Source of the DNA: Aquificota bacterium
GTDB taxonomy: Bacteria > Aquificota > Aquificia > Aquificales > Hydrogenothermaceae
NCBI GenBank assembly: GCA_013153635.1
Contig: JAADDZ010000009.1
Coordinates: 29,967-93,966, forward strand
Length of the DNA stretch: 64,000 bases
Reading direction: 5' to 3'
Both the position numbers and the translations under genes were made by a program. This document shows positions 4,951 through 19,296 of the stretch, piece after piece. A model generated the notes under the pieces. That model was not told the origin of the DNA. It searched no databases and saw nothing but the letters and a program-made list of their open reading frames with translations. Numbering within the stretch: position 1 is the first letter of the stretch; each line of letters opens with the position of its first letter.

Positions 4951-5922
4951 ATGAGAAAAATACTATCAACCGCAGTTTTAGGTGTTGCCGCTCTATCATT
5001 AGCAATACCAATGACTGCTGAAGCTAAAAAAGAAAGAAAATCACCACCAGCTCCATTCCTTATCTGGGTAGATGATGCTAAACCTCTCGTAGGAAATGCA
5101 GATATAAGGTTTATATGTAGTGATGGTGAGAAAAAATGTGAAAAACATATCCCAGGTTCAGCTATAACTTCAGCTCACGACTTACATTACCTTAAAGACA
5201 TAAAAGAATGTAACGGACTACCTATGTGTAAAGAAAGAGCAGAAGAGTTCATAGGAAAAGAGTTAGGAGTAAGTAATGATATGACTGCTATAGCTTACGA
5301 TGACGGTAGAGGACCAAACGCATCAGGAGTATGGTACTTCCTATATCTATACGGGTTAGATGCAGACAAAGGGCAAACAAAAATGCTAGATGGTGGACTA
5401 GCAACTTGGGAAGCTAAAGGTTACCCCTTAGAAACTGGACACCCAAAAGTTGAGCCTAAAACATTCAAAGCGAATATAAGATGGGACATCTTAGCTACCA
5501 AAGAAGAAGTACTAAAGGCTATAAAAGACAAGAAAAACTACATAATACTCGACGCAAGAAGATTCCAAGAGTATGTAGGTAAAGCTCTACTAAAAGCTGA
5601 ATACGAGCCGGGAAAAGAGATACAAGTTAAAAGAGGTGGACATATACCCGGAGCTGTGTTCTTCGAATGGAAGAAAGTCGCAGGAAACCCTGCTGGAAAG
5701 CCCGGAAGACCTTTATTCAAACCACTGAAAAAACTCAAAAAATACTTTACAAAAATCGGTGTAACTCCAGAAAAAACTGTTATCACATATTGCCACGTAG
5801 GTACAGGTAGAGGTTCATTCGTATTCGCCGCATTAAAACTAATCGGACATGAAAAAGCTAAAGTGTATGTAGGTTCTTGGGACGAATGGGGTAACGACCC
5901 ATCACTTCCAATCGAAAAATAA
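4951..5922 (+). CDS. Secreted tandem-rhodanese sulfurtransferase (thiosulfate sulfurtransferase-like)
   Basis: ATG at 4951 is preceded by AGGAGG and starts a signal peptide (MRKILSTAVLGVAALSLAIPMTAEA). Two rhodanese domains; the C-terminal one carries the active loop CHVGTGRGS. The listed 4669 start only adds an unprotein-like extension. Confidence 0.8.
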   Translation: MRKILSTAVLGVAALSLAIPMTAEAKKERKSPPAPFLIWVDDAKPLVGNADIRFICSDGEKKCEKHIPGSAITSAHDLHYLKDIKECNGLPMCKERAEEFIGKELGVSNDMTAIAYDDGRGPNASGVWYFLYLYGLDADKGQTKMLDGGLATWEAKGYPLETGHPKVEPKTFKANIRWDILATKEEVLKAIKDKKNYIILDARRFQEYVGKALLKAEYEPGKEIQVKRGGHIPGAVFFEWKKVAGNPAGKPGRPLFKPLKKLKKYFTKIGVTPEKTVITYCHVGTGRGSFVFAALKLIGHEKAKVYVGSWDEWGNDPSLPIEK

Positions 5923-5928
5923 CCTAAG

Positions 5929-5954
5929 AGCCGACCTCAAGGTCGGCTTTTTTT
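5929..5954 (+). terminator. Rho-independent terminator
   Basis: AGCCGACC-tcaa-GGTCGGCT followed by TTTTTTT, directly after the stop at 5922. Confidence 0.75.
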
Positions 5955-5969
5955 ATGGAGGGTTAAAAA

Positions 5970-7097
5970 ATGGAACACACACATGCGTTAATAATGGGAA
6001 TAATCACAGGAGCTCTTTTTGGAATAGTCCTACATAAAGTAGGAGCTATAAGATACTCAAGAGTCGAAGGAATGCTCTTACTAAGAGACCTAAAAATCAT
6101 GAAATTCGCCTTTATGGGAATAGCTACCGCATCAATAATCTACGGTTTGACCCATATACTTGGTTTAGCAGAAGCCCTAAATATCCACCCAAGAGTACTT
6201 CCATACATGGGAATAGCCCACCTAATTGGAGGTTTCTTGTTTGGTATAGCAATGGCTTCAGCTGGTTTTTGTCCCGGTACATGTGTAGCAAGGGTAGGTG
6301 CAGGAAAATGGTTTGCGGCGGCTGGAGTGATAGGATTGGTACTAGGAATAATAATCTACAGTATGATACAGCCATCACTAGTAGAAGCTGGAATATTAGG
6401 GCAGAAAGAGAAAATAACCTTGTACGGTCTACTAGGGATACCTTATGGTGTTTTAGCAGTAGTATGGGGAATAGCATTTATAATATTCACCATAATCGCA
6501 GACTGGTTTGACCCAGCTAAAAAATATGAACAAAAAGAAAATAAAAGCTTATTTCAAGCTATAAGAGGAGAGTGGCACTGGTTACCATCAGGTATCTTTG
6601 CAGGATTAATAATTACATGGGCAACTATGCAAGGAGAGTACTTAGGATTTTCTGGAGCTACCTTAGCTTTAGTTGGTTGGATAGCTCACTCAATAGGTCA
6701 CCCTTTACAGATTGTTCCAAACATAAACGAAACTATTATGTGGCATACAGGTTTGATAATAGGAGTATTACCCGGAGCATTTTTAAGTGCAATTCTTTCA
6801 AAAACATTCAAATTTGACGCAGTTCCTCCTCCTTTTGCAGTAGCAGTTACTCCAATACCTTGGGTTAGATTAGTACTTGTATTCTTTGCAGGCATATTTT
6901 TAGCCCTTGGGGCAATGATTGGAGGTGGTTGTACAACAGGAGCATTCCTTTCAGCATATCCAACTCTATCAGTAGGACCAATGGCTATGTCTGCAACGTA
7001 TTTTGCCATTGGAGTACTAACTGCAAATCTCATATATTTCGGTAGATGGAGCAGATTTGTACAAGCCAAAAAAGCGGCAGACGAGGTTTATGATTAA
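5970..7097 (+). CDS. YeeE/YedE family sulfur-compound (thiosulfate) transport membrane protein
   Basis: 375 aa, polytopic. Two conserved Cys-containing loops typical of YeeE/YedE (SAGFCPGTC and GGGCTTGAF). GGAGGG RBS upstream. Confidence 0.8.
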   Translation: MEHTHALIMGIITGALFGIVLHKVGAIRYSRVEGMLLLRDLKIMKFAFMGIATASIIYGLTHILGLAEALNIHPRVLPYMGIAHLIGGFLFGIAMASAGFCPGTCVARVGAGKWFAAAGVIGLVLGIIIYSMIQPSLVEAGILGQKEKITLYGLLGIPYGVLAVVWGIAFIIFTIIADWFDPAKKYEQKENKSLFQAIRGEWHWLPSGIFAGLIITWATMQGEYLGFSGATLALVGWIAHSIGHPLQIVPNINETIMWHTGLIIGVLPGAFLSAILSKTFKFDAVPPPFAVAVTPIPWVRLVLVFFAGIFLALGAMIGGGCTTGAFLSAYPTLSVGPMAMSATYFAIGVLTANLIYFGRWSRFVQAKKAADEVYD

Positions 7098-7119
7098 ATA
7101 ATTAAAAGAGGTGGAAAGA

Positions 7120-7257
7120 ATGAGTATGATAGAGAGGGTTCTATATTGGTTAGCAATAGTTATACTTATTATTGGACTTATCGGACTAAAAACCCAAATC
7201 TCTGAATTAGAGAAAAAAACCAAGCAAGTTCAAACAGAACTCCAAGAAGGAGGTTGA
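7120..7257 (+). CDS. Unlisted 45-aa single-pass membrane mini-protein
   Basis: ATG 7120 follows AGAGGTGGAAAG. The product MSMIERVLYWLAIVILIIGLIGLKTQISELEKKTKQVQTELQEGG has one TM helix and a charged tail. Its last codons contain the GGAGG RBS of the next gene. It is below the length cut-off of the ORF track. Confidence 0.4.
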   Translation: MSMIERVLYWLAIVILIIGLIGLKTQISELEKKTKQVQTELQEGG

Positions 7258-7262
7258 TTATC

Positions 7263-7757
7263 ATGAATCCAAAAATAGAAAGAGCCATATACATAGGGCT
7301 TATTGTAGTTCTAGCTGGTTTACTTGTAAGTTTTGGGAAAAAAGAGATAGAACTCCAAAAACAGATACCAGTTACAGCAGAAGAGCTTTACAAAAAATTA
7401 GCCAATCCTAACATAAACATTCAGATAATAGATGTGAGACCCTATGAACCAGAAGACGAAGATTACGAAGATGAGTATCTCTACTATACAGATATTCACC
7501 TACCGGGAGCTATTCCTCTTCCAGACTGCGATGAATCTAAAGCTCCAGAAGAAGCTCTAGACCAGATAAACCCATACGCACCAACTATCATAGTATCAAA
7601 AGATGGGGACCCAGAAATATTCAAGAAATGTGCGAAAAAATTTAAAATAGCTCAAAACTTAGAAGGTGGAATAGAAGCATGGGACGATGCTGGTCTTCCT
7701 ACAGAAGACGGAGAGTATGAACCACCAAAAGCAGGTGGCGGAGGTGGTTGTTTATAA
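7263..7757 (+). CDS. Membrane-anchored rhodanese-like protein without catalytic-loop Cys, with a C-terminal GGGGGCL tail
   Basis: ATG 7263 lies 9 nt after GGAGG (the listed TTG 7254 is less likely). N-terminal TM anchor (AIYIGLIVVLAGLLVSF). Rhodanese blocks IIDVRP... and NLEGGIEAWDDAGLP. The loop position reads IIVSKDGDPE with no Cys. The protein ends ...PPKAGGGGGCL. Confidence 0.7.
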   Translation: MNPKIERAIYIGLIVVLAGLLVSFGKKEIELQKQIPVTAEELYKKLANPNINIQIIDVRPYEPEDEDYEDEYLYYTDIHLPGAIPLPDCDESKAPEEALDQINPYAPTIIVSKDGDPEIFKKCAKKFKIAQNLEGGIEAWDDAGLPTEDGEYEPPKAGGGGGCL

Positions 7758-7762
7758 CAAGT

Positions 7763-7792
7763 AGGGTGGTCAGCCACCCTATAATTTTCTTT
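7763..7792 (+). terminator. Hairpin, weak terminator or attenuator before the molybdoenzyme genes
   Basis: AGGGTGG-tcag-CCACCCT followed by ATAATTTTCTTT, an imperfect U-tract. Confidence 0.45.
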
Positions 7793-7825
7793 ACTTAACG
7801 AAATTAAATTCAGGAGGTAAGTTTA

Positions 7826-10753
7826 ATGGCTCTTTCAAGAAGGGACTTTTTGAAAGCCCTTAGCGCGGCGGGAGCAGGGATAACCTTAGGAGGAAATGCT
7901 TCATTTGCCAAAGAAGCAGTATGGGTAGAAGACCCAAGAAGCTCTTATCCTAACACTTCATATACAGAAAACTTATATAGAAAAGAGTTTGCCTACACTT
8001 ATGGAAAAAAAGAAGAACACGGAACAGCTTATCACTGTGTAAATTGTCAAGGGAACTGTGCTTGGGATGTATGGGTAGACAGTGGTATAGTAACAAGGGA
8101 GAATCAAGTAGCAAACTATACACCAATAAACCCAAAAATTCCAGATTTTAACCCTAGAGGGTGTAACAAAGGAGTACAGCACTCCCAAATTATGTATGAA
8201 AAAGATAGAGTTTTATACCCTTTAAAAAGAGTAGGAGAAAGAGGGTCTGGTCAATGGAAAAGAATAACATGGGACGAAGCAGTAACAGAAATAGCCCAAA
8301 ATATATATAAAACGATGTTAGAGAAGGGACCAGAAGGTTTATATATCCATGTAGGTTCAGGAATGCTTACTGAAGCAAGAGCCGCTTCAGGTAAAAGGTT
8401 AGGTACACTTCTTGGAGCGGTAAGACCTTACATAGCCTCATATGTAGGAGATATGTTCCAAGGAGTATCAGTAGTTTATGGAGAAGGAAATATAGGTTGT
8501 TCTTGGGACTTTCAGTATGTTACAGATGTTCAAGTGTACTGGGGAATGGACCCAAACAAAACAAGAATCCCAGATGCCCACTTTGTATGGGAAGGAAAAT
8601 ACAACGGTTCAAAAGTTATAGTTATAGCACCAGAATTCAATGCTACTGCTACTCATGCAGACCTGTGGATACCTGTAAAAGCAGGATACGATACATTTTT
8701 AGCAATGGCAGTTATAAACGAAATAATACAGAAAAAAATGTATAAAGAAGGATTTGTAAAGGTATTTACAGACCTTCCTTTCTTGGTAAGATTAGACGAT
8801 AAGAAACTCCTTAGAATGTCAGATATAGATATAGAAAATCCTTCAGCAGAGTTTGATGAAGAAATTTATAAAGTTTTTGAAGAAAAATCAGAAGGAAAAG
8901 AATTTGAACCAGAAGCATGTTTCTTCTGCTGGAATACAAAAACAAATAAACTAACATTGATGCCGGGTACAGAAGGTTGCCCGATACCAACTCTTAGATT
9001 AAAAGATGTAGGTTGGGATATAGACCCTGCATTAGAAGGGACTTGGGAAGTTACACTAAAAGATGGAACAAAAGTAAAAGTTACTACAGTGTTTGAACTT
9101 CTAAAAAAAGAAGCTGAAAAATTTTCAGCAGAAAAAACATGGAAACTCACAGGAGTCCACCCTACAGTAGTAGAACAGTTAGCAAAAGACATGGCATTAA
9201 ACAAAGTAGTTGAGTTAAATGTTGGATTTACCCTTGGTAAATACTTTAATGGACTTTTAGCACATAGAGCGGTTGCATCAATACCCGGTCTAATTGGGAA
9301 ATTAGGACCTTACGGTGGACTGAACACAGAAAACGAATGGGCAATATCAGGCATGGGCAAACTGTCTGGGTTTGCTGGAAAATACATGTTTAGATTTGCA
9401 TCAGGTTTTGTAAGTGAGTTTGTCTTAGGTAATGTATTCAAAGATGCAGAAAAACTATACGATGAAGAAGATGTTAAAAGAGCAACTGGATTATCAAAAG
9501 ACGAATATTTCAAAAGAGTAAAGGAAACCTTAGATAACTTTGGAACAGACGAAAAATGGAAAGAAAATCTGCACAAAAAAGATGGAAAACCTTACTGGAA
9601 TACAGTAGAAACATTTTTAATCTTTGCAGATTCTAGATTCAGAAGAAACAAAGGTACAACTTATAAAGAAGCTTTCCTAAAAAAAGCTAAATTCTTTGCC
9701 TATGTAGACTTTAGAATGAACTCCACCGCCCAATATGCTGACATCGTTCTACCAGCGAAATCTCACTATGAAGTTTGGGACTTGAGAACAAATCCCGGTT
9801 ATCATAGATATGCTAATCTAGCTCAACCACCGTCAAATCTAAAGCCTGTAGGAGAAGCAAAATCAGAATGGGAAATCTGTACACTTATAGTAGAAAAACT
9901 ACAGGAAATTGCACTAAAGAACTTTGAAGAAGCAAAGAAAAAAGGAGATAGCAATCCCGAAAGATTTATAAAAATACCAGACCCAACTCACAGTAAAACA
10001 GGATACAGAGAACTAGATAAATTAGTAGAAGAGTACACGTTAGGTGGAAAATTAAGAACCGATAAAGATGCAGTTGAGCTAGCACTTGAAAGTGTAGACC
10101 AGTTTAAACCAAACACCATAGAATCTATGAGAAAAAGAGGCGGATTCTTGATGTTAAATGATAAAGCTGGAAAAACCTCACCTCTTTATCCTGACAAACC
10201 TTACAGCTCCTTTGAAAATAACCTATTTTTATTTGAAAGATTTGAAACCCTATCTGGAAGGCTAACTTACTATGTAGACCACGAATTATGGATAGAATTT
10301 GGAGCGGCTCTCCCAACAGCAAAAGAGCCGATAAGACCTAAAAGGTATCCATTTATCCTAATGTCTCCTCACGCTAGATGGTCAATACACTCAACATACA
10401 AAACATCAAAAATACTCCTTAGACTACAAAGAGGAAAGCCATACATAATGATAAATCCAGAAATTGCTAAGAAAAAAGGAATAAAAGATGGAGATGAAGT
10501 AAAAATATTTAATGCCCTTGGTGAATTTTATGCCATGGCAAAACTCTATCCATCTGCTCCAAAAGATGCAATTATTATAGAGCATGGTTGGGAACCTTTC
10601 TTCTTCAAGAACAATAAGTGTCACAATGAAGTGGTAGGAGACATGCTAAATCTTCTAGAAATGTCAGACGGTTGGGGACACTTAAAATTTGGTGGAAATT
10701 GGGACGGAAACCAACATGCATTTGAAACATCAGTAGATATAGAAAAAGCATAA
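7826..10753 (+). CDS. Tat-exported type II DMSO-reductase-family molybdopterin oxidoreductase, alpha subunit (substrate unknown)
   Basis: Twin-arginine signal (MALSRRDFLKALSAAGAG). FS0 motif of the H-x3-C-x3-C type (YHCVNCQGNCAWDVW ... NPRGCNKG) as in the NarG/SerA/EbdA/DdhA group. 975 aa. Confidence 0.85.
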   Translation: MALSRRDFLKALSAAGAGITLGGNASFAKEAVWVEDPRSSYPNTSYTENLYRKEFAYTYGKKEEHGTAYHCVNCQGNCAWDVWVDSGIVTRENQVANYTPINPKIPDFNPRGCNKGVQHSQIMYEKDRVLYPLKRVGERGSGQWKRITWDEAVTEIAQNIYKTMLEKGPEGLYIHVGSGMLTEARAASGKRLGTLLGAVRPYIASYVGDMFQGVSVVYGEGNIGCSWDFQYVTDVQVYWGMDPNKTRIPDAHFVWEGKYNGSKVIVIAPEFNATATHADLWIPVKAGYDTFLAMAVINEIIQKKMYKEGFVKVFTDLPFLVRLDDKKLLRMSDIDIENPSAEFDEEIYKVFEEKSEGKEFEPEACFFCWNTKTNKLTLMPGTEGCPIPTLRLKDVGWDIDPALEGTWEVTLKDGTKVKVTTVFELLKKEAEKFSAEKTWKLTGVHPTVVEQLAKDMALNKVVELNVGFTLGKYFNGLLAHRAVASIPGLIGKLGPYGGLNTENEWAISGMGKLSGFAGKYMFRFASGFVSEFVLGNVFKDAEKLYDEEDVKRATGLSKDEYFKRVKETLDNFGTDEKWKENLHKKDGKPYWNTVETFLIFADSRFRRNKGTTYKEAFLKKAKFFAYVDFRMNSTAQYADIVLPAKSHYEVWDLRTNPGYHRYANLAQPPSNLKPVGEAKSEWEICTLIVEKLQEIALKNFEEAKKKGDSNPERFIKIPDPTHSKTGYRELDKLVEEYTLGGKLRTDKDAVELALESVDQFKPNTIESMRKRGGFLMLNDKAGKTSPLYPDKPYSSFENNLFLFERFETLSGRLTYYVDHELWIEFGAALPTAKEPIRPKRYPFILMSPHARWSIHSTYKTSKILLRLQRGKPYIMINPEIAKKKGIKDGDEVKIFNALGEFYAMAKLYPSAPKDAIIIEHGWEPFFFKNNKCHNEVVGDMLNLLEMSDGWGHLKFGGNWDGNQHAFETSVDIEKA

Positions 10754-10767
10754 AAAGGAGGTAAACA

Positions 10768-11880
10768 ATGTCAAAAAGACAATTAGCAATGGTAATGGAT
10801 TTAAATAAATGTATAGGTTGCCAGACCTGTACAGTTGCCTGCAAAACCCAATGGACTAACAGAAATGGTAGAGAATATATGTATTGGAACAATGTAGAAA
10901 CAATGCCCGGAGAAGGTTACCCTAGAGGTTGGATGGAAGCAGGTGGAGGATTCGATGAACAAGGAAATCTGCAAGATGGAGTGATTCCAGACTTAGTACA
11001 TGATTACGGAGTGCCATGGGATTACAACCATGATGAACTATTTGAAATGGACTATCTAAAACCAGATGGAGACCCAGTTTGGGGTCCTAACTGGGACGAA
11101 GATGTAGGAGCAGGAGATTGGCCTAATTCTTACTATTTCTATCTTCCAAGGATATGTAACCACTGTTCAAACCCCGGTTGTTTAGCCGCATGTCCAAGAG
11201 AAGCCATATTCAAAAGAGAACAAGATGGAATAGTTCTTGTAGACCTTGATAGATGTCAAGGGTATAGATACTGTATAGCAGGTTGTCCTTACAAAAAGAT
11301 TTACTTCAACCCAAAGCTTTCAAAGTCAGAAAAATGTATATTCTGTTTCCCAAGAATAGAAAGAGGTCTTCCTCCAGCTTGCGCACATCAATGTGTAGGA
11401 AGAATAAGATGGGTAGGCTTTTTAGATGATGAAGAAGGACAGATATACAAACTAGTTCACAAATATAAAGTAGCTCTACCATTAAGACCAGATTTTGGTA
11501 CTCAACCAAATGTATACTATGTTCCTCCAGTACTTAGCCCACCAAAATTTGATGATGAAGGAAAACTAATAGAAGGAGAAATTACAGGAAGAGTTCCAAT
11601 CGAATTTTTAGAAAAACTCTTTGGACCAGAAGTTCATAACGCTATAAAAACTCTAAAAGAAGAGATGGAAAAAAGAAAAAACGGAGAAGAATCAGAGCTA
11701 ATGGACATACTTATCGCATACAGTCATGCAGATATGTTTAGACTAGATGAAAAATACTATCAGGATTTAGCATCAGAAAAAGGATTAAAAGGTACAGAGT
11801 TCTTCAAAATCATTGACCACAGATACATTGCAGGAGCTAATACAAATAAGGAAGAAGTAAAGATATACTTCGAAAAATAA
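10768..11880 (+). CDS. Iron-sulfur beta subunit (NarH/SerB/EbdB-like, four clusters)
   Basis: Four Cys groups: CIGCQTCTVAC, CNHCSNPGCLAACP, CQGYRYCIAGCP, CIFCFPR...C..CVGR. 370 aa. Immediately follows alpha with its own RBS. Confidence 0.85.
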   Translation: MSKRQLAMVMDLNKCIGCQTCTVACKTQWTNRNGREYMYWNNVETMPGEGYPRGWMEAGGGFDEQGNLQDGVIPDLVHDYGVPWDYNHDELFEMDYLKPDGDPVWGPNWDEDVGAGDWPNSYYFYLPRICNHCSNPGCLAACPREAIFKREQDGIVLVDLDRCQGYRYCIAGCPYKKIYFNPKLSKSEKCIFCFPRIERGLPPACAHQCVGRIRWVGFLDDEEGQIYKLVHKYKVALPLRPDFGTQPNVYYVPPVLSPPKFDDEGKLIEGEITGRVPIEFLEKLFGPEVHNAIKTLKEEMEKRKNGEESELMDILIAYSHADMFRLDEKYYQDLASEKGLKGTEFFKIIDHRYIAGANTNKEEVKIYFEK

Positions 11881-11933
11881 AATTGAGGGGAGAAACTCCC
11901 CTTGTTAACAATATAGCGAAGGAGGAAAAAAGA

Positions 11934-13124
11934 ATGAAAAACTTGGTAAAAACAGCTCTTCTTGGAGTTGTTTCTACATCACTGATTATTAATGCATCAA
12001 AAGCAGATATTAAAACCTTTTTCAAATACGAAGTTCTACCCTCTAAACAGATAAGTCAATCTGTACCGTCAGACCCAAGAGATGAGTTATGGAGTATGGT
12101 TCCGGGGAAATACGTCTTCTTTTATCCTCAAATATCTGTAAGATTAAATGATGCTGATGCTAACAGAGTAATTCCTAAAAAGCGCCTTCAAAAAGCTCTA
12201 GTTAAAGTCGTTTATAACAGTGAAAACATAGCTGTTTATATAAGATGGAAAGATAGAACCCCTTCTATCCAACCAGTTTATACAACAAAAGCCTTTGGAG
12301 ATGGCATAAGTGTAGAATTTCCAAATGATTTTGGAGCAGGAAAAACACTTCCGTATGTAGGTATGGGAGACTTAAAACACCCAGTAACAGTTTATTTACA
12401 AAAAACGGTAGCTGGGAAAGATTATGAAAAAACATTTATATCAGAAGGATTTGGTACCTTAACAGAGATTACAGAAAACGGAGTATCCATGGAAATGGAT
12501 TACGATAAAGCTAAAAGAGAGTGGATAGCAGTTATAAAAAGACCTTTAAAAACCAAAAATAGTGACTTAAGAGCAGGATTAGTACCTATAGCGTTTGCTA
12601 TATGGAACGGCTCTCAACAGGAAAGAGATGGAAATAAATCTCTATCTAGATGGAAATTTATAAGATTAAAAAGCTACAAAATAGATAAAGAATATCTAGC
12701 CTATATCTCATGGGGAGATATGATTCATAAAGAAGCTGACCCAAACAGAGGGAAAAAACTAACAATCCAAAATGGGTGTAATGCATGTCATATATATGAC
12801 GACCAGAGAACAGCACCTTTAGATATGGCTCCAGACCTTTCTAACATTGGAGGTATCGCCCATGCTCCATATCTTAAAGAGTCATTAGTAGACCCAAACG
12901 ATGTGATAATAAGAAATCTTAATCCAAATAGACATTACAATAAATTTGCCCAACCAGACAAAAACGGTGCATATCCAAATAATGACATGTACACATGGTA
13001 TATAAAAACTCCTGATGGAAAAATACAGTCTAAGATGCCTTCTTTTAGTCATCTATCAGAACAAGATATAAAAGACATAATTGCATATTTAAAAACGTTA
13101 AGAAACTGGAGAAACTTTAAGTAA
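11934..13124 (+). CDS. Gamma subunit: EbdC/SerC/DdhC-like haem-b domain fused to a C-terminal mono-haem cytochrome c
   Basis: ATG 11934 follows GGAGGA and starts a signal peptide (MKNLVKTALLGVVSTSLIINASKA). Central region matches the pattern of type II enzyme gamma subunits (GDGISVEF, YVGMGD, AFAIWNGSQQERDGNKSLSRW). The C-terminal about 130 aa carries CNACH plus a distal Met region. Confidence 0.7.
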   Translation: MKNLVKTALLGVVSTSLIINASKADIKTFFKYEVLPSKQISQSVPSDPRDELWSMVPGKYVFFYPQISVRLNDADANRVIPKKRLQKALVKVVYNSENIAVYIRWKDRTPSIQPVYTTKAFGDGISVEFPNDFGAGKTLPYVGMGDLKHPVTVYLQKTVAGKDYEKTFISEGFGTLTEITENGVSMEMDYDKAKREWIAVIKRPLKTKNSDLRAGLVPIAFAIWNGSQQERDGNKSLSRWKFIRLKSYKIDKEYLAYISWGDMIHKEADPNRGKKLTIQNGCNACHIYDDQRTAPLDMAPDLSNIGGIAHAPYLKESLVDPNDVIIRNLNPNRHYNKFAQPDKNGAYPNNDMYTWYIKTPDGKIQSKMPSFSHLSEQDIKDIIAYLKTLRNWRNFK

Positions 13125-13138
13125 AAAGGAGGCAAAAG

Positions 13139-13588
13139 ATGAAAATAATGAAAAAACTTTTGATTTCACTATTATGGTTAGCTTTTTTAACTAATGTCCC
13201 TTTAAATCAAGCTATTGCCCAAGAAGAAACCCAAGAAGCAACTTCAGATGAAGAATTAGAAGAAGTAGAGATTTACAGCGGAGTGATTACTGCAAAATCC
13301 TGTGCAGAAAAAGCTCAAGAGACAGGAGAGTTTGAAATCCTAGCTAACTGCCCTCCTATAGAAGCGGCAAAATCTGGTTATGTTATATATGATGTTACCG
13401 AAAACAAATTTTATGTGCCAAAGCTAGGTAAAATATATCTCTTTGAACTAGATGAAGGGTTTGGCGGTAGTATAGATATTACCGGAGTTATTGTAGGAGA
13501 AACTGAAGACGGAATTCCTATAATAGACCCTGAAGAATATGAAATAACTCCAAAACCAAAACCGGGATTCTTCAAAGGTTGTTTATAA
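13139..13588 (+). CDS. Secreted acidic protein of unknown function ending in KGCL
   Basis: AGGAGG RBS. Sec signal peptide (LAFLTNVPLNQAIA|QEE). Acidic linker, internal Cys pair (SCAEKA, ANCPP). C-terminus PGFFKGCL. No family recognised. Confidence 0.6.
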   Translation: MKIMKKLLISLLWLAFLTNVPLNQAIAQEETQEATSDEELEEVEIYSGVITAKSCAEKAQETGEFEILANCPPIEAAKSGYVIYDVTENKFYVPKLGKIYLFELDEGFGGSIDITGVIVGETEDGIPIIDPEEYEITPKPKPGFFKGCL

Positions 13589-13592
13589 CATA

Positions 13593-13616
13593 TGGGGCGC
13601 TAATGCCCCATTTTTA
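13593..13616 (+). terminator. Rho-independent terminator
   Basis: TGGGGC-gctaat-GCCCCA followed by TTTTTAT. Confidence 0.7.
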
Positions 13617-13781
13617 TGTTTTAAATCTTTACATTCTCCTATCAACGTTCTTCTTTATTCTATTTAATCTCTTTATAAATTTATTTATAATTTCTATACT
13701 TAAGTACAAAAATGTAGATATTGTAAATTCTATAAATATGTAGTAAAAATTTAAGTAGCAAATATAAAAAGGAGGGTTCTT

Positions 13782-14417
13782 ATGAGATTAGGTTTTTTGG
13801 TAGATTTGAGTAGGTGTATGGGGTGCATGGCTTGTGCAGTGTCTTGTAAAGCAGAGAATAATGTTCCTCTAGAGAGCTGGAGACTAAGAGTTAAATATAT
13901 AGACCAAGGAGAGTTTCCAGAAACAAAAAGACATTATGTTCCCCTTAGATGTAACCATTGTGAAAATGCACCTTGCGAAAGGATATGTCCTGTATCAGCA
14001 CTTCACTATCTCCCAAATGGAATTGTAAATGTAGACCATACAAGATGTATAGGCTGTGCATCGTGTATGATGGCTTGTCCATACAATGCCATATATATAG
14101 ACCCTCTTACAAATTCAGCTGATAAATGTACCTACTGCGCTCATAGGATAGAAGTTGGGTTAATGCCTGCATGTGTTGTAGCATGCCCTACACATGCCAA
14201 TATTTTTGGAGACCTTGATGACCCAGAGAGCGAAATATCCAAATATCTTCAAGAACATAGAGATGTGATGGTTAGGAAACCAGAATTAAATACAAAACCG
14301 AAACATTTTTATGTGAGAGGTTCTACTGTTGCACTTGACCCTCTTGCTTCAGAAAGACCAGAAGGGTTTACCCTGTTTACAGAAGTAAAATTCTTAGAAC
14401 ATATAGGAGGGCATTAA
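13782..14417 (+). CDS. 4Fe-4S ferredoxin-type subunit (TtrB/PsrB/NrfC-like)
   Basis: 211 aa with four CxxCxxC(xxxC)P-type groups: CMGCMACAVSC, CNHCENAPCERICP, CIGCASCMMACP, CTYCAHR...C..CP. Confidence 0.85.
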   Translation: MRLGFLVDLSRCMGCMACAVSCKAENNVPLESWRLRVKYIDQGEFPETKRHYVPLRCNHCENAPCERICPVSALHYLPNGIVNVDHTRCIGCASCMMACPYNAIYIDPLTNSADKCTYCAHRIEVGLMPACVVACPTHANIFGDLDDPESEISKYLQEHRDVMVRKPELNTKPKHFYVRGSTVALDPLASERPEGFTLFTEVKFLEHIGGH

Positions 14418-14418
14418 A

Positions 14419-15300
14419 ATGTTGGGAGCAGAAGTAACCTTTGATGTGGCACTGCCAAAAGTAGTGTGGGGGTGGCTCGTTTCTACTAATATGTGGGCAA
14501 AGAGTATATCTACAGGAGCGTTCTTTGTTGGACTTTATTTTATAAAAAAATATCCAGACCAAGATGCATTTTTTAGAAAGTGGTTGCCAATATTAGGACT
14601 TATTTTTATTGGAATTACATTACTAGTTACTATATTAGACCTTCACCATATGTTTAGATTTTGGAAAATATTTTTATTTGCTCATTTTACTTCAGCAGTT
14701 ACATTAGGAGCTTGGGTAGTATCTGCTTATGTATTGATACTTCTCATAGCTTTTTGGTCTTGGGTCACAGGTAACAGAAAACTCTTTGATAGAGTAGTTA
14801 TTCCCGGATTTATATTCGCATTTTTCTCTACTATTTATACAGCTGGAATATTAGGTCAATCTACAGGAAGAGAAGTATGGATATTTTCAGCAGAGATGAT
14901 TTCTATGCTCCTTAGTGCTACTTTAGCAGGTTCAGCGGCTTATCTATTAATAGGTTCTATCTATGGAAGTTTAAATGAAAAGATGAAAAAAGAGCTTGGA
15001 TATATACTTTTTGGAAGTGCAGGTTTACTTGCGGCGATGTTTATCGGAGAACTTGTATTTGCAAAAATGCACAGTGAATATGCAGAAAAAGTTGTAGAAA
15101 TATTGGCATTTGGCGAAGTAGCCCCTTGGTTCTGGGGAGGAATGTTCTTAGCATTTATCGTACCTATGGTTTTAGTTGGAATAGCTACAGAAAAGAGAAA
15201 ATATGAGTATGCACTATTAGGCTCTATTAGTGCGCTTGTCGGACTTTGGCTTATAAAACATGCATGGCTAATAGCTCCTCAATCATTACCATTAAGTTAA
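14419..15300 (+). CDS. NrfD/PsrC/TtrC-type integral membrane quinol-interacting subunit
   Basis: 293 aa with about 8 predicted TM helices. Starts 1 nt after the stop of the FeS subunit and lies between the B and A subunits. Confidence 0.75.
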   Translation: MLGAEVTFDVALPKVVWGWLVSTNMWAKSISTGAFFVGLYFIKKYPDQDAFFRKWLPILGLIFIGITLLVTILDLHHMFRFWKIFLFAHFTSAVTLGAWVVSAYVLILLIAFWSWVTGNRKLFDRVVIPGFIFAFFSTIYTAGILGQSTGREVWIFSAEMISMLLSATLAGSAAYLLIGSIYGSLNEKMKKELGYILFGSAGLLAAMFIGELVFAKMHSEYAEKVVEILAFGEVAPWFWGGMFLAFIVPMVLVGIATEKRKYEYALLGSISALVGLWLIKHAWLIAPQSLPLS

Positions 15301-15319
15301 TCAAGGAGGGAGATAAAAT

Positions 15320-18300
15320 ATGAGATTATCAAGAAGAACTTTTTTAAAAGGTAGTGCGGCTACGATAGGAGGAATAGCTTTAGCTAAAGGGGTTTTCTCA
15401 AAAACTCAACCTTCTGCTGTAGCACAAACTAATGAAGAAATAACATTTACTCCAGAAAGGCTTGACTATTATCCACCATTTGATAAATGGAACAACTGGA
15501 GAGAACCTGATGGAGACTATTGGAAGCTCAAAGGTGGTGCCTTAAGAGATGGGGTAAAAATGATAAATTACATGCTGGTTCCAACGGTATGTAACAACTG
15601 TGAGGCGGCTTGTGGTCTTACAGCATGGGTAGACAAGGATAACCTTGTAGTAAAAAAATATATGGGAAATCCTTTCCATTCTGGTTCTAGAGGAAGAAAC
15701 TGTGCAAAAGGCTATGCTACTCAATCCCAGATGTACGACCCAGATAGAATTCCTTTCCCTTTAAAAAGAGCGCCTGGTTCAAAAAGAGGAGAAGGAAAAT
15801 GGGTTAGAACTACTTGGGACGAAGCCTTAAAAGATATAGCAAAAAAACTAAGAGAAGCTATTTCTAGTGGAAGTGAGCTAGAGAGAAAGATGATAATGTA
15901 CCACGTAGGTAGACCTAACGAATCTGGAGGATTTACTGCTAGAGTTGTTTGGACTTGGGGTGGAGACCATCACAACTCTCATACAAATATATGTTCTTCT
16001 GGAGGTAGATTAGGAGGAATAGCTTGGTCTGGAGACGATAGACCTTCTCCGGATTTTGCAAGCTCAAGATTGATATTTTTGTCAGCCTCTCATGCGGCAG
16101 ATGCAGGTCACTATTACCAACAGCACGCAGGATATATAGCTGATGCGAGAGCCAAGGGTGCAAAACTTGTAATAATGGACCCAAGACTTTCAAACTCTGC
16201 TGGATTAGCAGACTTATGGATACCTGTATGGCCCGGTACAGAAGCCGCAGTATATCTATCAATGATAAGTAGACTTCTACAGGAAGACAAATACAACAGA
16301 AAATTTATGGAAAGATGGGTAAACTGGAAAACATTCCTTAGAGATAAGGACTATCTCAACTATCTAAAAGATAACGGTTTTATATCAAAATTTCCTGAAG
16401 GAGAGACTTTTGATGATTTTATCGCTGTTTTAAAAGAAATCTACGCTCCATATACTTTTGAATGGGCTTCTAAAGAAACAAAAGTACCTATATACAAGCT
16501 TGAAAGACTATATGAAATGATTTTATGGGCTGAAGATAGGATTACATCTTATTTTTGGAGAGCTCAAGCCGCAGGGAATAGAGGTGGTTGGCTAAACGCT
16601 GGAAGAACAGGATACTTTTTATTAATCGTAACAGGAGCTATTGGAGGAATAGGTGGAAATGGTTGGCACAAATGGCATGTATTAGGAGTAGGAGCAAAAG
16701 GTGGAAAAGCTACTTTAAAAGAAAAACCGGGTCCTGTAGATGATTGGAACGAACTCTTGTGGCCACCAGAATGGCCGTTATCTACTTACGAACTGTCCTT
16801 CCTTTTACCTCATCTATTGTCTGACGATGAATGGAGACAAAAATGGGAAAAAAGAGGTCTTAAAATTCCCGGAAAATTAAAATTATGGATTTCTAAGATA
16901 TACAATCCAGTATGGATTAATCCAGATGGCTTTAGATGGATAGAGGTTTTGAGAAACGAAAATAAGATGGAGTTAACAGTAAATCTATCTCCTACTTGGT
17001 CAGAGACCAACTGGTTCTGTGATTATATACTCCCTGTAGGATTAGCTGGAGAAAGACATGACAACCAATCAGCAGAAACAAAACCAGAGAGATGGACTGC
17101 TTTTAGACAGCCAGTACTAAGAGTGGCTCTTCAAAAGATGGGGTGGAAGCCAAAAGTCCCTTGGAGAGCAACATTGGAAGCACACAAAAAAGCTGGTCTT
17201 GGAGAAGTATGGGAAGAAAACGAGTTTTGGATTAATCTTATGTGGGAAGTAGACCCAGATGGTTCTCTAGGAGTGAGACAGTACTACGAATCAAAGAAAA
17301 ATCCGGGTAAACCTGTAACTATAGAAGAGTGGTATGATGCGGCGTTTGGTACTCTACCAAACTTGAGCAAGGTATGTCAAAAATTAGGAGTAACTCCTTA
17401 TGAGTACATGAGAGATAGAGGTGCATGGACAGAAGAAACAGATGTGTACAACGTTCATGAAAGAGAACTCCCTTATGACCCTACAAAGAATGCAATAAAG
17501 TACAAAGGAAAATGGATACCTCTATCTGAATGTGAAATAGATGAAGATACAGGCGCAGTTTACCTAAAACATCACGGTGCAAGAGAATGGCATAGTGAAA
17601 GACATACTATAGCTGTTAAGAAAGATGGCAGATACCTTCAAGGTTTCCACACACCTACAGGGGTGCTTGAGTTTTATTCAAAGACCTTTGTTGAGTGGAA
17701 ATGGCCTGAATATGCGATACCTGTCTATCCTAGAGATAAAGAAGAGAGAAAGAAAATGGTTCATATAGTAACTCATGTACATCACGACTACATGACAGAA
17801 GAGAACGCTTTTGCTTTGAATCCAATATTCAGGCTTCCTTACAATATTCACACAAGGTCTGTAAATGCTAAATGGCTGATGGAAATCTCTCAAAACCATA
17901 ACCCTATATGGATATATGAAGGTGATGCTAAAAGATTGGGTATAAAAAGAGGAGATGCTATCAAACTTAGAGTAGTAGATACTGTTTCTGGTATAGAGGT
18001 TGGATACTTTGTGGGAATGGCTATTCCAACTCAAGCTACAAGACCGGGAGTTGTTGCGTGTTCACATCATTCTGGAAGATGGAGATTAAAAACTACCGTA
18101 AAAGTAGATAAATATGAGCTAGGAATATTAAGGTATGGTTCAGCTCTTGCAGATATGAAAGAAGAAGGGTCTGTTAAAAAGATAAGATGGATAAAAGGTG
18201 TAGAAAGATTTAAGGTGGAAAAACAAGGTGATGAATTTAAATGGCCTTATCCAGAATTTAATAAAGATATGGAGTTTGTTTGGTGGAGAGGAGATACAGG

Positions 18301-18586
18301 AGTATGGCAGAATTCTGTATTCCCTGCTAACCCAGACCCGTTATCTGGAATGCACTGCTGGCATAAAAAAGTTCTTATAGAAAAGGCTGGTCCAGAAGAT
18401 AAGATAGGTGACGTAGTAGTAGATATAGAAAAGACATTCAAAGTATATCAAGCTTGGAGAGATGTATTAACTAGACCAGCACCTGGTCCTAACTACCTAA
18501 GAAGACCAAAATGGTTCAAGAGACCTTGGTATCCACACACAGATAAGTCTTATAGAATGCCAACTGGTGAATCTCACGGAGAGTAA
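15320..18586 (+). CDS. Tat-exported molybdopterin oxidoreductase catalytic subunit, Ttr/Sre/Psr-like (large, 1088 aa)
   Basis: Twin-arginine signal (MRLSRRTFLKGSAATIGG). FS0 motif C-x2-C-x3-C (CNNCEAACGL ... GRNCAKG). The B-C-A gene order and about 1000+ aa size resemble tetrathionate reductase TtrBCA. Confidence 0.8.
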   Translation: MRLSRRTFLKGSAATIGGIALAKGVFSKTQPSAVAQTNEEITFTPERLDYYPPFDKWNNWREPDGDYWKLKGGALRDGVKMINYMLVPTVCNNCEAACGLTAWVDKDNLVVKKYMGNPFHSGSRGRNCAKGYATQSQMYDPDRIPFPLKRAPGSKRGEGKWVRTTWDEALKDIAKKLREAISSGSELERKMIMYHVGRPNESGGFTARVVWTWGGDHHNSHTNICSSGGRLGGIAWSGDDRPSPDFASSRLIFLSASHAADAGHYYQQHAGYIADARAKGAKLVIMDPRLSNSAGLADLWIPVWPGTEAAVYLSMISRLLQEDKYNRKFMERWVNWKTFLRDKDYLNYLKDNGFISKFPEGETFDDFIAVLKEIYAPYTFEWASKETKVPIYKLERLYEMILWAEDRITSYFWRAQAAGNRGGWLNAGRTGYFLLIVTGAIGGIGGNGWHKWHVLGVGAKGGKATLKEKPGPVDDWNELLWPPEWPLSTYELSFLLPHLLSDDEWRQKWEKRGLKIPGKLKLWISKIYNPVWINPDGFRWIEVLRNENKMELTVNLSPTWSETNWFCDYILPVGLAGERHDNQSAETKPERWTAFRQPVLRVALQKMGWKPKVPWRATLEAHKKAGLGEVWEENEFWINLMWEVDPDGSLGVRQYYESKKNPGKPVTIEEWYDAAFGTLPNLSKVCQKLGVTPYEYMRDRGAWTEETDVYNVHERELPYDPTKNAIKYKGKWIPLSECEIDEDTGAVYLKHHGAREWHSERHTIAVKKDGRYLQGFHTPTGVLEFYSKTFVEWKWPEYAIPVYPRDKEERKKMVHIVTHVHHDYMTEENAFALNPIFRLPYNIHTRSVNAKWLMEISQNHNPIWIYEGDAKRLGIKRGDAIKLRVVDTVSGIEVGYFVGMAIPTQATRPGVVACSHHSGRWRLKTTVKVDKYELGILRYGSALADMKEEGSVKKIRWIKGVERFKVEKQGDEFKWPYPEFNKDMEFVWWRGDTGVWQNSVFPANPDPLSGMHCWHKKVLIEKAGPEDKIGDVVVDIEKTFKVYQAWRDVLTRPAPGPNYLRRPKWFKRPWYPHTDKSYRMPTGESHGE

Positions 18587-18598
18587 TATAATTCTTGA

Positions 18599-18623
18599 GG
18601 GGGCTAAAAGCCCCTTTTTATTT
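18599..18623 (+). terminator. Terminator-like hairpin
   Basis: GGGGC-taaaa-GCCCC followed by TTTTTATTT. A chaperone gene still follows 37 nt later. Confidence 0.6.
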
Positions 18624-18660
18624 AAAATTTCTATTGTAGTTTTAGATTAAAGGAGAAAAG

Positions 18661-19296
18661 ATGGGAACAGTAGAGGAAACACAAGCACGGGTTAATATGT
18701 ATGGACTTTTGTCAAGACTTTTGATAGAAGAAGTTGATTTTTATACGCTAGAAAAAATCAAAGAAAATAAAGATTTACTTGATTTATTCCCTAAGACAAA
18801 AGAATGGGATTTATTTTGGGAAAAGGATACTCAAAAGCTTATAGAAGAAGACCTAAATGTAGATTTTACAACTATTTTTATTTTAAATGCTTACCCTTAT
18901 GAATCAGTATTTGTTAATGATGAAGGTTACATAAACCCAACGATAACAAACCCTACCCTTATGTTCTATAAAGACCATGGATACTCTATAGACCTTAATG
19001 AAACAAGAGCTTTATCTCCTGACCATATTGCAGTAGAACTTGAATTTATGATGAATCTTATACAAGAGGAACTAAACGCAATAGCGAAAGAAGATGAGGA
19101 AGAATTAAAAAGGATAAGAAATATACAAAAAGATTTTCTTAAAGAACATCTTGCTAACTGGGGAACTATTTATCTACTATCAGCTAGGGAACTAGCTCAA
19201 ACACCTTTTTACCAAGATGTTAGCACTCTTGCTATGGAATTTTTATTAAACGATTACGAATATATAAATGAGCTTTTAGGTACTCAAAAAAATTAA
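18661..19296 (+). CDS. TorD/DmsD/NarJ-superfamily redox enzyme maturation chaperone
   Basis: 211 aa. N-terminal pattern RVNMYGLLSRLLIEE..., later PYESVF and DHIAVELEFM blocks typical of the family. Confidence 0.7.
   Translation: MGTVEETQARVNMYGLLSRLLIEEVDFYTLEKIKENKDLLDLFPKTKEWDLFWEKDTQKLIEEDLNVDFTTIFILNAYPYESVFVNDEGYINPTITNPTLMFYKDHGYSIDLNETRALSPDHIAVELEFMMNLIQEELNAIAKEDEEELKRIRNIQKDFLKEHLANWGTIYLLSARELAQTPFYQDVSTLAMEFLLNDYEYINELLGTQKN

Follow-up and report, generated by a model that had tools for sequence, protein, structure and literature searches.

Type II members of the dimethyl sulfoxide (DMSO) reductase family—such as SerABC, ClrABC, DdhABC, EbdABC, PcrAB(C), and the periplasmic Nar enzymes—are the closest described relatives of a molybdoenzyme encoded in a gene island of a member of the Hydrogenothermaceae (Aquificota), which occupies positions 4951-19296 of a 64,000-nucleotide stretch of DNA (hereafter, the window). 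These enzymes hold an alpha subunit exported by the twin-arginine translocation (Tat) system, with a His/Cys3 FS0 motif and an Asp as molybdenum (Mo) ligand, a four-cluster beta subunit, and an EB_dh-type gamma subunit that binds haem b through Met and Lys, all features found in or predicted for the first molybdoenzyme of the island (enzyme 1). Like them, enzyme 1 is predicted to be periplasmic, without a membrane subunit, and to exchange electrons with c-type cytochromes; electron exchange between the gamma haem b and cytochrome c is known in type II enzymes, the S-oxygenating dimethylsulfide dehydrogenase among them. However, enzyme 1 belongs to a separate clade (at most 38% identity), its gamma subunit is always fused to a cytochrome c, and no delta/NarJ-type gene separates beta from gamma. 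It also has obligatory partners, a rhodanese and a small protein ending in FKGCL, in a context devoid of cld, ser, or ddh genes.

Sulfur carriers with a mobile terminal cysteine are known from other systems. As in SoxYZ-SoxCD, the island encodes a periplasmic carrier with a Cys on a predicted flexible C-terminal arm, and by analogy a Mo enzyme and a cytochrome c would oxidise its persulfide. The proteins themselves are unrelated, SoxC being a member of the sulfite-oxidase family and SoxY an Ig-like protein ending in GGCGG; unlike in the Sox system, no SoxAX or SoxB equivalents are present, and loading by a rhodanese is proposed rather than oxidative conjugation. On the other hand, the arm of DsrC carries sulfur into the active site of DsrAB, and DsrC/TusE share with two island proteins, cys149 and RhdC, a penultimate Cys followed by one terminal aliphatic residue after Pro-Lys-Pro (...LPKPTGCV versus ...PKPKPGFFKGCL and ...PPKAGGGGGCL). 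Contrary to these, DsrC is cytoplasmic and helical, holds a second arm Cys, and serves a sirohaem enzyme, whereas the arms described here sit on a predicted periplasmic beta-barrel and on a rhodanese-like domain. Periplasmic rhodanese-type proteins encoded with an enzyme of the DMSO reductase family, and thought to deliver the chalcogen, are exemplified by Sud-PsrABC from Wolinella and the Srr/ExtH rhodaneses of selenite/tellurite reductases. The partner enzymes in those systems are Cys-ligated, quinol-linked reductases of the Psr clade, unlike the catalytic subunit of enzyme 1 (alpha1), which appears to be Asp-ligated and cytochrome-c-linked, and the island adds extra carriers that are not rhodaneses.

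The core of the island is tentatively interpreted here as a periplasmic sulfur-oxidation module built on Cys-tail carriers, a functional assignment in which our confidence falls a little short of even. The island comprises 12 credible genes, all on the forward strand, in the order rhd2, yeeE, mini48, rhdC, alpha1, beta1, gammaC, cys149, B2, C2, A2, and torD (Table 1), and the TorD chaperone is the sole product neither exported nor membrane-bound. An earlier note on this DNA had counted 14 to 15 genes, which is corrected to 12, although every gene that it listed is present on the forward strand where it had been placed. Its parts list was also borne out: a secreted tandem rhodanese, a YeeE protein, a transmembrane mini-protein, an anchored rhodanese-like protein, an alpha/beta/gamma-cytochrome c enzyme, a secreted Cys-tail protein, a second enzyme, and a TorD protein. 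No description of the alpha1 clade, the FKGCL family, or their combination was found in the searched literature, in agreement with the absence of a characterised operon counterpart stated in that note; the coverage of this literature is incomplete and a prior description is possible. All large components belong to known superfamilies, and there is a substantial chance that the pathway is new.

The evidence for a conserved unit comes from a scan of one genome per species for alpha1 relatives, which were found at 531 loci among 185,579 species-representative genomes. The alpha1 clade is thus present in approximately 0.3% of sequenced species, distributed over at least three phyla. The best 80 of the 531 loci were taken with 10-kb flanks, and the window proteins were compared by BLAST with all of their open reading frames (ORFs), each feature being counted only in loci with sufficient flanking sequence. 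The gamma subunit is fused to a cytochrome c in 66/66 loci, and an ORF ending in KGCL (cys149) lies directly 3' of it in the same proportion (66/66), while a tandem rhodanese is encoded upstream of alpha in 60 of 64. YeeE is present in all 50 loci from Aquificota and the Myxococcota group and in none of the 14 from Campylobacterota; the GGGCL-tailed RhdC follows the same pattern (45/50 and 0/14). The conserved core is therefore the tandem rhodanese, the alpha-beta-gamma(c) enzyme, and the FKGCL protein, and YeeE, RhdC, and the mini-transmembrane protein represent a facultative branch. The core order recurs in Aquificota, Myxococcota/Bdellovibrionota, and Campylobacterota, a cross-phylum synteny that argues against chance co-location. 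The identity of alpha is 73-94% within Hydrogenothermaceae, 57-62% in Myxococcota, Bdellovibrionales, and unclassified metagenome-assembled genomes (MAGs), and 56-59% in Campylobacterota, the closest public loci being vent MAGs of Hydrogenothermaceae (93-94%). The conservation of the rhodanese, YeeE, and Cys-tail neighbours beside alpha orthologues, which had been suggested as a check, is accordingly observed across phyla, with the exception of YeeE and RhdC in Campylobacterota.

Alpha1 holds a Tat signal (TAT_signal domain; TIGR01409, 23.3 bits over a cut-off of 16.7) and an FS0 motif, H70-x3-C74-x3-C78 plus the distal C113, that is invariant in 13 diverse homologues and aligns with HLVNCTGAC of PcrA. 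D209 is likewise invariant and aligns with the Mo-ligand Asp of PcrA (YDWYGD) and EbdA (DIGD). The inspection of the Mo ligands proposed in the earlier note thus points, by alignment, to Asp209 in alpha1 and to Cys225 in A2, the catalytic subunit of the second enzyme. The score of alpha1 against the curated TIGR03479 subfamily (802.6 bits) is below its cut-off of 984.75, which places it in a divergent type II clade outside the curated set; the scores against EbdA (348 bits, cut-off 2000) and NarG (223 bits, cut-off 1084) equivalogs are also low. Its best solved relatives are PcrA (383 bits) and EbdA (322 bits), and its identity is 38% with Ideonella ClrA, 32% with both PcrA and haloarchaeal pNarG, 29% with a cld-adjacent enzyme, and 28% with Thermus NarG. 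In a neighbour-joining tree with these references (PcrA being rebuilt from an alignment), the 18 sampled members of the alpha1 clade group together beside ClrA, set apart by a long stem. The nesting of alpha1 inside a characterised clade, considered in the earlier note, was not observed among these references. A role as periplasmic nitrate reductase or nitrite oxidoreductase was rejected because of the low similarity and because it would give no reason for sulfur carriers. The aromatic gate of PcrA (F164/Y165/W167) is replaced by I203/A204/Y206 in alpha1, which by alignment is compatible with a wider funnel. In one Campylobacterales MAG (L066:9995-12880; L numbers denote the related loci), the alpha1 orthologue is found in two ORFs of 574 and 384 amino acids (aa), due to a frameshift or an assembly error.

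The gamma-cytochrome c protein, GammaC, is listed as an ORF beginning at 11883, although the Met at 11934 is its probable start. Its Met161 and Lys252, counted from the ORF start at 11883, align with Met108 and Lys201 of EbdC, which we take to be the axial ligands of haem b. It scores 110 bits against TIGR03477 (cut-off 170), every full-length homologue has a single CxxCH motif, and the cytochrome c domain shows a weak match to the SoxX model. The fusion, proposed from the outset, is confirmed by its constancy among related loci, and so is the lack of a NarJ-like delta gene in the alpha-beta-gamma set, since no such gene separates beta from gamma in the island or in the 80 related loci. The predicted electron route leads from the Fe-S clusters through haem b to the fused cytochrome c.

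The second line of evidence concerns the tail of cys149. No family match was obtained for this protein in Pfam and NCBIfam, and its family, which appears to be a new one, had only 34 members in a profile search of 1.84 billion representative proteins; nearly all the full-length members end in KGCL, and the family is essentially confined to the molybdoenzyme-module context. The FKGCL-COOH terminus is invariant across phyla, preceded by sequences of the type ...P[KR]PK[PA]G[FAS]FKGCL, or ...PPPKKSFFKGCL in Campylobacterota. In the AlphaFold2 model (pLDDT confidence score, 82), short helices accompany a small beta-barrel, and the tail, which is predicted to be flexible, is modelled with less confidence. 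Two further invariant residues, C55 and C71, probably form a disulfide. No fold match for this model was found in the PDB with Foldseek at E<=0.001, the best being weakly OB-fold-like (E=0.095). DsrC was not matched in that search, and neither SoxY nor SoxZ was matched in Pfam, NCBIfam, or the fold search, the tail being FKGCL and not GGCGG. Three long Cys-poor or Cys-rich proteins, P0343 (1599 aa), P0348, and P0349, matched a portion of the cys149 profile weakly and many times over, probably through composition or unrelated repeats and not as members of the family.

The same invariant G-C-L-COOH tail is held by two unrelated scaffolds, cys149 and RhdC, and GCL is the second commonest C-terminal tripeptide (131 cases) among the 15,012 ORFs of the 80 loci. 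The two Cys-tail proteins had been recognised in the earlier note, and their ends are FKGCL and GGGGGCL, respectively. Five solved DsrC proteins end in ...AGLPKPTGCV, and the likeness consists of PKP (cys149) or PP (RhdC) followed by G-C-aliphatic-COOH; it is probably convergent.

Regarding the trafficking genes, Rhd2 shows a 3-MST-like match over residues 64-322, spanning both rhodanese domains. The intact CHVGTGR loop that had been pointed out in it belongs to a catalytic loop, YCHVGTGRGS, which is at least 95% conserved in 70 homologues, together with the pair Cys87/Cys93. In YeeE, the motifs CPGTC and GGGCTTG reach the same level of conservation (at least 95%). Both proteins fit sulfur models better than selenium models: Rhd2 scores 102 bits against 3-MST and 32 bits against ExtH, and YeeE 63 bits against the TsuA equivalog NF052577 (cut-off 400) and 29 bits against YedE/FdhT.

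YeeE resembles TsuA-TsuB and SoxT1A/SoxT1B in holding the second and third Cys motifs, in having a small Cys-free neighbour with one transmembrane helix, and in its sulfur-oxidation context, with ArsR-type regulators nearby in Myxococcota. By motif position, the Cys residues of CPGTC and GGGCTTG would correspond to Cys91 (helix 4) and Cys293 (helix 8) of TsuA (PMC11582611). However, its score falls well short of the TsuA equivalog cut-off, the first conserved Cys (Cys22 of TsuA) appears to be missing, as the N-terminal 100 residues hold no Cys, and its partner is a periplasmic, anchored, Cys-tailed rhodanese-like protein instead of a cytoplasmic TusA-like YeeD. The mini-protein encoded by mini48, detectable by BLAST in 18 Aquificota loci, is the likely partner of YeeE; a 56-aa Cys-free gene product with one transmembrane helix adjoins SoxT1A in Hyphomicrobium (PMC11582611).

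RhdC is listed as an ORF beginning at 7254 with TTG, and its homologues begin at MNPKIER, equivalent to 7263. A short basic tail followed by a transmembrane helix at its N-terminus indicates a signal anchor that would place the domain in the periplasm. Its C-terminus, ...PPKAGGGGGCL, corresponds to ...PP-x(2-3)-GGGCL-COOH, invariant in 61 homologues, in which C92 and C126 are also invariant. The catalytic position, after T-V-I-V, is occupied by S/T/G/A in 61/61 sequences and never by Cys. This question was decided from the alignment columns, BLAST against Rhd2 and a PDB search with RhdC being uninformative. Judged by these columns, RhdC is a rhodanese-like, non-catalytic domain that keeps the tail Cys.

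Table 1. Features of the island at window positions 4951-19296, with one example from a related locus
Feature	Position	Strand	Characteristics
rhd2, secreted tandem rhodanese (sulfurtransferase)	4951..5922	+	Sec signal; PF00581 E=9e-21
yeeE, YeeE/YedE-family membrane protein	5970..7097	+	PF04143 E=1e-29, 104 bits
mini48, mini-protein with a single transmembrane helix	7111..7257	+	48-codon ORF, one transmembrane helix, no Cys
rhdC, anchored periplasmic rhodanese-like protein (predicted)	~7263..7757	+	PF00581 E=6e-9
Terminator-like hairpin between rhdC and alpha1	7761..7782	+	9-bp stem, 5 GC pairs, T-rich tail
alpha1, Tat-exported type II DMSO-reductase-family catalytic subunit	7826..10753	+	TIGR03479 803 bits
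beta1, four-cluster Fe-S subunit	10768..11880	+	TIGR03478 529.8 bits > 480.7 cut-off
gammaC, haem-b gamma fused to monohaem class I cytochrome c	~11934..13124	+	EB_dh and Cytochrom_C domains
cys149, secreted ~12 kDa carrier-like protein, 149 aa	13139..13588	+	Sec signal; C-terminal arm PKPKPGFFKGCL-COOH
Terminator-like hairpin 3' of cys149	13592..13611	+	Followed by AT-rich spacer and strong ribosome-binding site ahead of B2
B2, four-cluster ferredoxin subunit	13782..14417	+	Fer4_11; TtrB-like 198 bits < 416 cut-off
C2, NrfD/PsrC-type quinone-interacting membrane anchor	14419..15300	+	PF03916 E=2e-15
A2, Tat-exported Psr/Phs/Ttr-supergroup catalytic subunit, 1088 aa	15320..18586	+	Molybdop_Fe4S4; best PDB match PsrA 2vpw, 120 bits
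Terminator-like hairpin 3' of A2	18597..18617	+	Hairpin scan
torD, TorD/NarJ-family maturation chaperone	18661..19296	+	PF02613 E=2.5e-17
SorA-like enzyme, example from a related locus	L021:5658-6851	-	With L021:5338-5661 (-)

The island, encoded in an AT-rich window (~33% G+C), consists of four modules in series: trafficking, enzyme 1 with its carrier, enzyme 2, and the chaperone. Among the four strongest forward-strand terminator-like hairpins of the region, three sit exactly after rhdC, cys149, and A2, and the fourth is the A2 hairpin again, called in a variant form; therefore, the island is modular and probably not a single operon. Thus, of the co-directional island described in the earlier note, the same-strand run stands, whereas a single operon is disfavoured by three internal hairpins. 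A 54-codon ORF at 13579-13743, which overlaps a terminator hairpin and has no homologues, is probably spurious.

The neighbours of the related loci provide further hints about the function. An ArsR-type helix-turn-helix domain fused to a rhodanese is encoded directly upstream of rhd2 in 22 loci of the Myxococcota group (e.g., L023:6587-7294 and L040:6511-7239), and represents a candidate sulfane-sulfur-sensing regulator of the module. A SorA-like Mo enzyme of the sulfite-oxidase family is found within 10 kb in 13 loci, with a small monohaem cytochrome c alongside in five of them. The sulfur role claimed earlier is backed by both of these neighbours, and the sulfur reading is favoured because of these sulfane-sensing-type regulators, the SorA-like genes, the fit of Rhd2 and YeeE to sulfur models, and the habitats of the carriers, which include sulfidic-cave and vent sulfur oxidisers and freshwater Myxococcota.

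In the proposed mechanism, the catalytic Cys of Rhd2 would accept sulfane sulfur from thiosulfate, polysulfide, or S0 and hand it on to the penultimate Cys in the ...GCL-COOH arms of soluble cys149 and membrane-tethered RhdC. By analogy with DsrC and DsrAB, and with SoxY and SoxCD, the cys149 arm would then enter the substrate funnel of alpha1, whose Mo=O centre would oxidise the arm-bound sulfur by oxygen-atom transfer to sulfinate or sulfonate, to be released as sulfite or sulfate. The Fe-S clusters, haem b, and the fused cytochrome c would relay the electrons to the pool of soluble c-type cytochromes, and from there they would pass to a terminal oxidase or to denitrification enzymes. The RhdC arm, for its part, would feed YeeE and the mini-transmembrane protein, through which sulfane sulfur would reach the cytoplasm, to be oxidised there (sHdr), assimilated, or used as a signal to regulators like the ArsR-rhodanese proteins found in Myxococcota. 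B2-C2-A2 would be a separate, optional, quinone-linked oxidoreductase of sulfur compounds, and TorD probably matures one or both Mo subunits.

The presentation of sulfur to the Mo centre by the carrier Cys is suggested by the DsrC-like tail and by the coupling of cys149 to the enzyme, which persists in loci without YeeE. To our knowledge, sulfur compounds can only be oxidised at the potentials of c-type cytochromes, a thermodynamic argument under which selenate or chlorate could be acceptors. The YeeE-like proteins SoxT1A and SoxT1B have been described to import sulfane sulfur delivered by a periplasmic carrier, both for oxidation and as a signal to an ArsR-type repressor (PMC11582611). The presentation of carrier-bound sulfur to the Mo centre would also fit the Aquificota, which lack SoxCD (PMC13500833). 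The more specific proposal, an unrecognised periplasmic pathway in which a type II DMSO reductase oxidises a cysteine persulfide on the DsrC-like arm (...FKGCL-COOH) of a rhodanese-loaded 12-kDa carrier, is possible but doubtful. Several points weigh against a sulfur-oxidation module of this kind. Campylobacterota generally have SoxCD and yet keep the core, so that a simple replacement of SoxCD is insufficient as an explanation. The cys149 gene is also carried by Hydrogenothermus marinus, described as a strict H2 oxidiser, and the SorAB-like neighbours could equally mean that the Mo enzyme neither makes nor consumes sulfite. Furthermore, the closest characterised relatives of alpha1 by sequence are oxyanion reductases (ClrA, 38%), and the tree that sets its clade apart was built without SerA, DdhA, NxrA, and full-length EbdA.

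Other explanations account for part of these data. Enzyme 1 could be a dehydrogenase of free sulfite or thiosulfate, where Rhd2 would split thiosulfate into sulfite and a persulfide, the enzyme would oxidise the sulfite to sulfate, and the GCL proteins would ferry the sulfane half to YeeE and the cytoplasm or to other acceptors. The same parts list and localisation would serve both interpretations, and the dispensability of YeeE and RhdC in Campylobacterota, as well as the usual transfer of oxygen atoms to small anions in this enzyme family, agree with this model, for which a truncated Sox system combined with cytoplasmic sHdr offers a precedent (PMC11582611). However, it leaves unexplained the link between cys149 and gamma in 66/66 loci, even in those lacking YeeE, and would make the SorAB-like sulfite dehydrogenases beside the cluster in 13 loci redundant, and we consider it unlikely. 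A lower probability is given to a Ser/Clr-like respiratory reductase of selenate, tellurate, or chlorate fed by cytochrome c, with the rhodanese, the Cys-tail proteins, and YeeE/YedE capturing and trafficking the Se/Te product. ClrA is indeed the nearest characterised relative, rhodaneses accompany selenite/tellurite reductases (the ExtH model gives a weak match), and YedE-type proteins have been linked to selenium. Moreover, isolates of Sulfurihydrogenibium, whose species respire selenate and selenite, carry the cluster. Against this, selenium-specific models score below sulfur models, a sulfur role is indicated by the regulators and SorA-like neighbours, the module is common among the sulfur oxidisers and freshwater Myxococcota mentioned above, and no chlorite dismutase or selenium genes were seen near alpha1-clade clusters, unlike in true chlorate clusters, which do have cld.

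The carrier role of the GCL-tail proteins has a competitor of its own, slightly less probable than the oxyanion reductase, in which they would be structural or assembly subunits—for instance, a fourth subunit with a Cys that ligates a haem or cluster—or a factor for maturation. The position of cys149 immediately 3' of gamma, as expected for a subunit gene, and the weak SoxX-model match of the cytochrome c domain would agree with it, as would the Cys-ligated haems that are catalytic in SoxAX and TsdA. Nevertheless, the same tail is found on a membrane-anchored rhodanese-like protein encoded beside YeeE and not beside the enzyme, this tail is predicted to be flexible, and the resemblance to the DsrC arm favours a carrier. 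Least probable is that enzyme 1 acts on dimethylsulfide, methanethiol, or a hydrocarbon, like Ddh or Ebd, next to unrelated sulfur-trafficking genes. Although Ddh and Ebd sit in the type II clade, and the wiring of gamma to cytochrome c is typical of dehydrogenases, unrelated neighbours would not be expected to persist, as the rhodanese and the FKGCL protein do, over three phyla at 57-60% alpha identity, and the EbdA equivalog score is far under its threshold.

Apart from the sulfur-oxidation module favoured here, the island encodes a second molybdoenzyme, B2-C2-A2. Like PsrABC, PhsABC, and TtrBCA, it has a Tat-exported A subunit that is predicted to be Cys-ligated, a four-cluster B subunit, and an NrfD-type C subunit. 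In the motif TNIC(225)SSG of A2, C225 aligns with the Mo-ligand Cys of PsrA. Unlike in those systems, all equivalog scores are far below threshold (PhsA, 148.8/694 bits; TtrA, 59.8/1750; ArrA, 63/1600), and A2 is, by sequence criteria, a Cys-ligated member of an uncharacterised Psr/Phs/Ttr clade, with relatives in Sulfurimonas, Nitrosophilus, Thiovulum, Sulfurovum, Thermomicrobium, Rhodococcus, and haloarchaea (Natrinema). The description of a TtrB-C-A-ordered enzyme in the earlier note thus holds for the B-C-A gene order, which is that of ttr, but not for orthology to TtrA, given 60 bits against 1750. A2 lies downstream of enzyme 1 in 13/14 Aquificota, 5/30 Myxococcota-group, and 0/12 Campylobacterota loci, and also occurs alone elsewhere. 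The second molybdoenzyme is an optional, lineage-specific add-on, and these proportions place the pairing outside the conserved core, contrary to the proposal of a double-molybdoenzyme unit.

Two of the A2 homologues are plasmid-encoded. On a Sulfurovum mangrovi plasmid (NZ_CP087125.1; L083), NrfD-A-TorD-Fx is found alone after a histidine kinase, and the annotation table lists no B-type Fe-S gene. The homologue itself (9001-12157, 56% identical) is a two-piece match without an annotated coding sequence between annotated nrfD, torD, and 4Fe-4S flanks, and may be a pseudogene or frameshifted. On a megaplasmid of Thermomicrobium roseum (L082, 5108-9859), a 43% identical homologue is preceded by a CsoR-family "metal-sensitive" regulator and by a 510-aa protein of the 4Fe-4S type, which may be a fused B-C subunit.

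The TorD chaperone of the window scores 154 bits to A2-associated and 133 bits to alpha1-associated TorD proteins of Campylobacterota, and 41 bits to ClrD, so that its assignment to one of the enzymes by similarity is ambiguous. In Campylobacterota, the same TorD subfamily, followed by Fx, is encoded directly after alpha-beta-gamma-cys149 with no A2 present, which makes doubtful the earlier statement that enzyme 1 has no chaperone of its own. Fx is a cytoplasmic multi-[4Fe-4S] protein of ~350 aa encoded 3' of TorD in 31 related loci (e.g., L003:14628-15722, L088:16016-17098, and L063:16192-17256). It was spotted by all-versus-all single-linkage clustering of the locus ORFs, which served only this purpose, as it merged families via spurious ORFs in GC-rich genomes. 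Fx is absent from the 64-kb window by tblastn, where torD, ending at 19296, abuts a convergent fabZ.

Other genes recur around the related loci. Genes for Mrp/NBP35 (NUBPL-type) Fe-S carrier ATPases are present in 35 loci of Myxococcota and Campylobacterota (e.g., L063:6780-8762 (-) and L021:15509-16381 (-)); those of Campylobacterota come with an LRV/HEAT-repeat protein and an uncharacterised 120-aa protein. An Mrp/NBP35 gene is also part of a cld-adjacent chlorate-reductase-like cluster on an Alisedimentitalea plasmid (L085). The whole cluster, together with Fx and a FadL-type outer-membrane protein, is found on assembled contigs encoding a cys149 homologue that is named for Persephonella (P. 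marina) in NCBI and UniRef. In the Persephonella loci (L087:17235-20257), the genes beyond Fx encode a FadL/Toluene_X outer-membrane channel, a 163-aa secreted protein, and a membrane protein of the PF03601 (YeiH-like) type. Five Aquificota loci have the FadL-like gene, which could be tied to the uptake of hydrophobic sulfur.

The flanks of the island are unrelated to it, comprising FeoB, a citrate-synthase-like protein, and a HAMP-PAS histidine kinase upstream, and the convergent fabZ and a UbiA prenyltransferase downstream. The FeoB ORF (window 94-1857) opens with a GTG preceded by a stop codon, and its match to the N-terminal G-domain model is limited to positions 110-156, the final third; a split or frameshifted gene, or a misjudgement close to the edge of the window, may account for this. 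The 253-aa protein at window 1865-2626 consists of the citrate-synthase C-terminal domain alone, and resembles the short citryl-CoA-lyase-type proteins of autotrophs with the reductive tricarboxylic acid cycle. The UbiA prenyltransferase (window 19765-20628, (-)), together with an SCO4490-type menaquinone-biosynthesis decarboxylase (window 43383-45221, (-)), points to the futalosine route to menaquinone, the quinone with which the NrfD subunit C2 is likely to interact.

The module is a testable candidate for sulfane-sulfur oxidation under a truncated Sox system and for the periplasmic handling of S0 or polysulfide. It offers a defined parts list, an invariant Cys to mutate, and cultured hosts, such as Persephonella marina, Sulfurihydrogenibium azorense, S. 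subterraneum, S. yellowstonense, Hydrogenivirga, and related Campylobacterota. Hundreds of genomes label these genes as "molybdopterin oxidoreductase", "selenate/chlorate reductase-like", or "hypothetical protein", which can mislead the inference of selenate or chlorate respiration from metagenomes. If the proposed mechanism is true, enzyme 1 would be the first type II DMSO reductase with a protein-bound substrate, adding protein-bound sulfur as a new substrate class to this family. The module would then represent a non-homologous functional counterpart of SoxYZ-SoxCD, and the third independent invention of a Cys on a C-terminal swinging arm.

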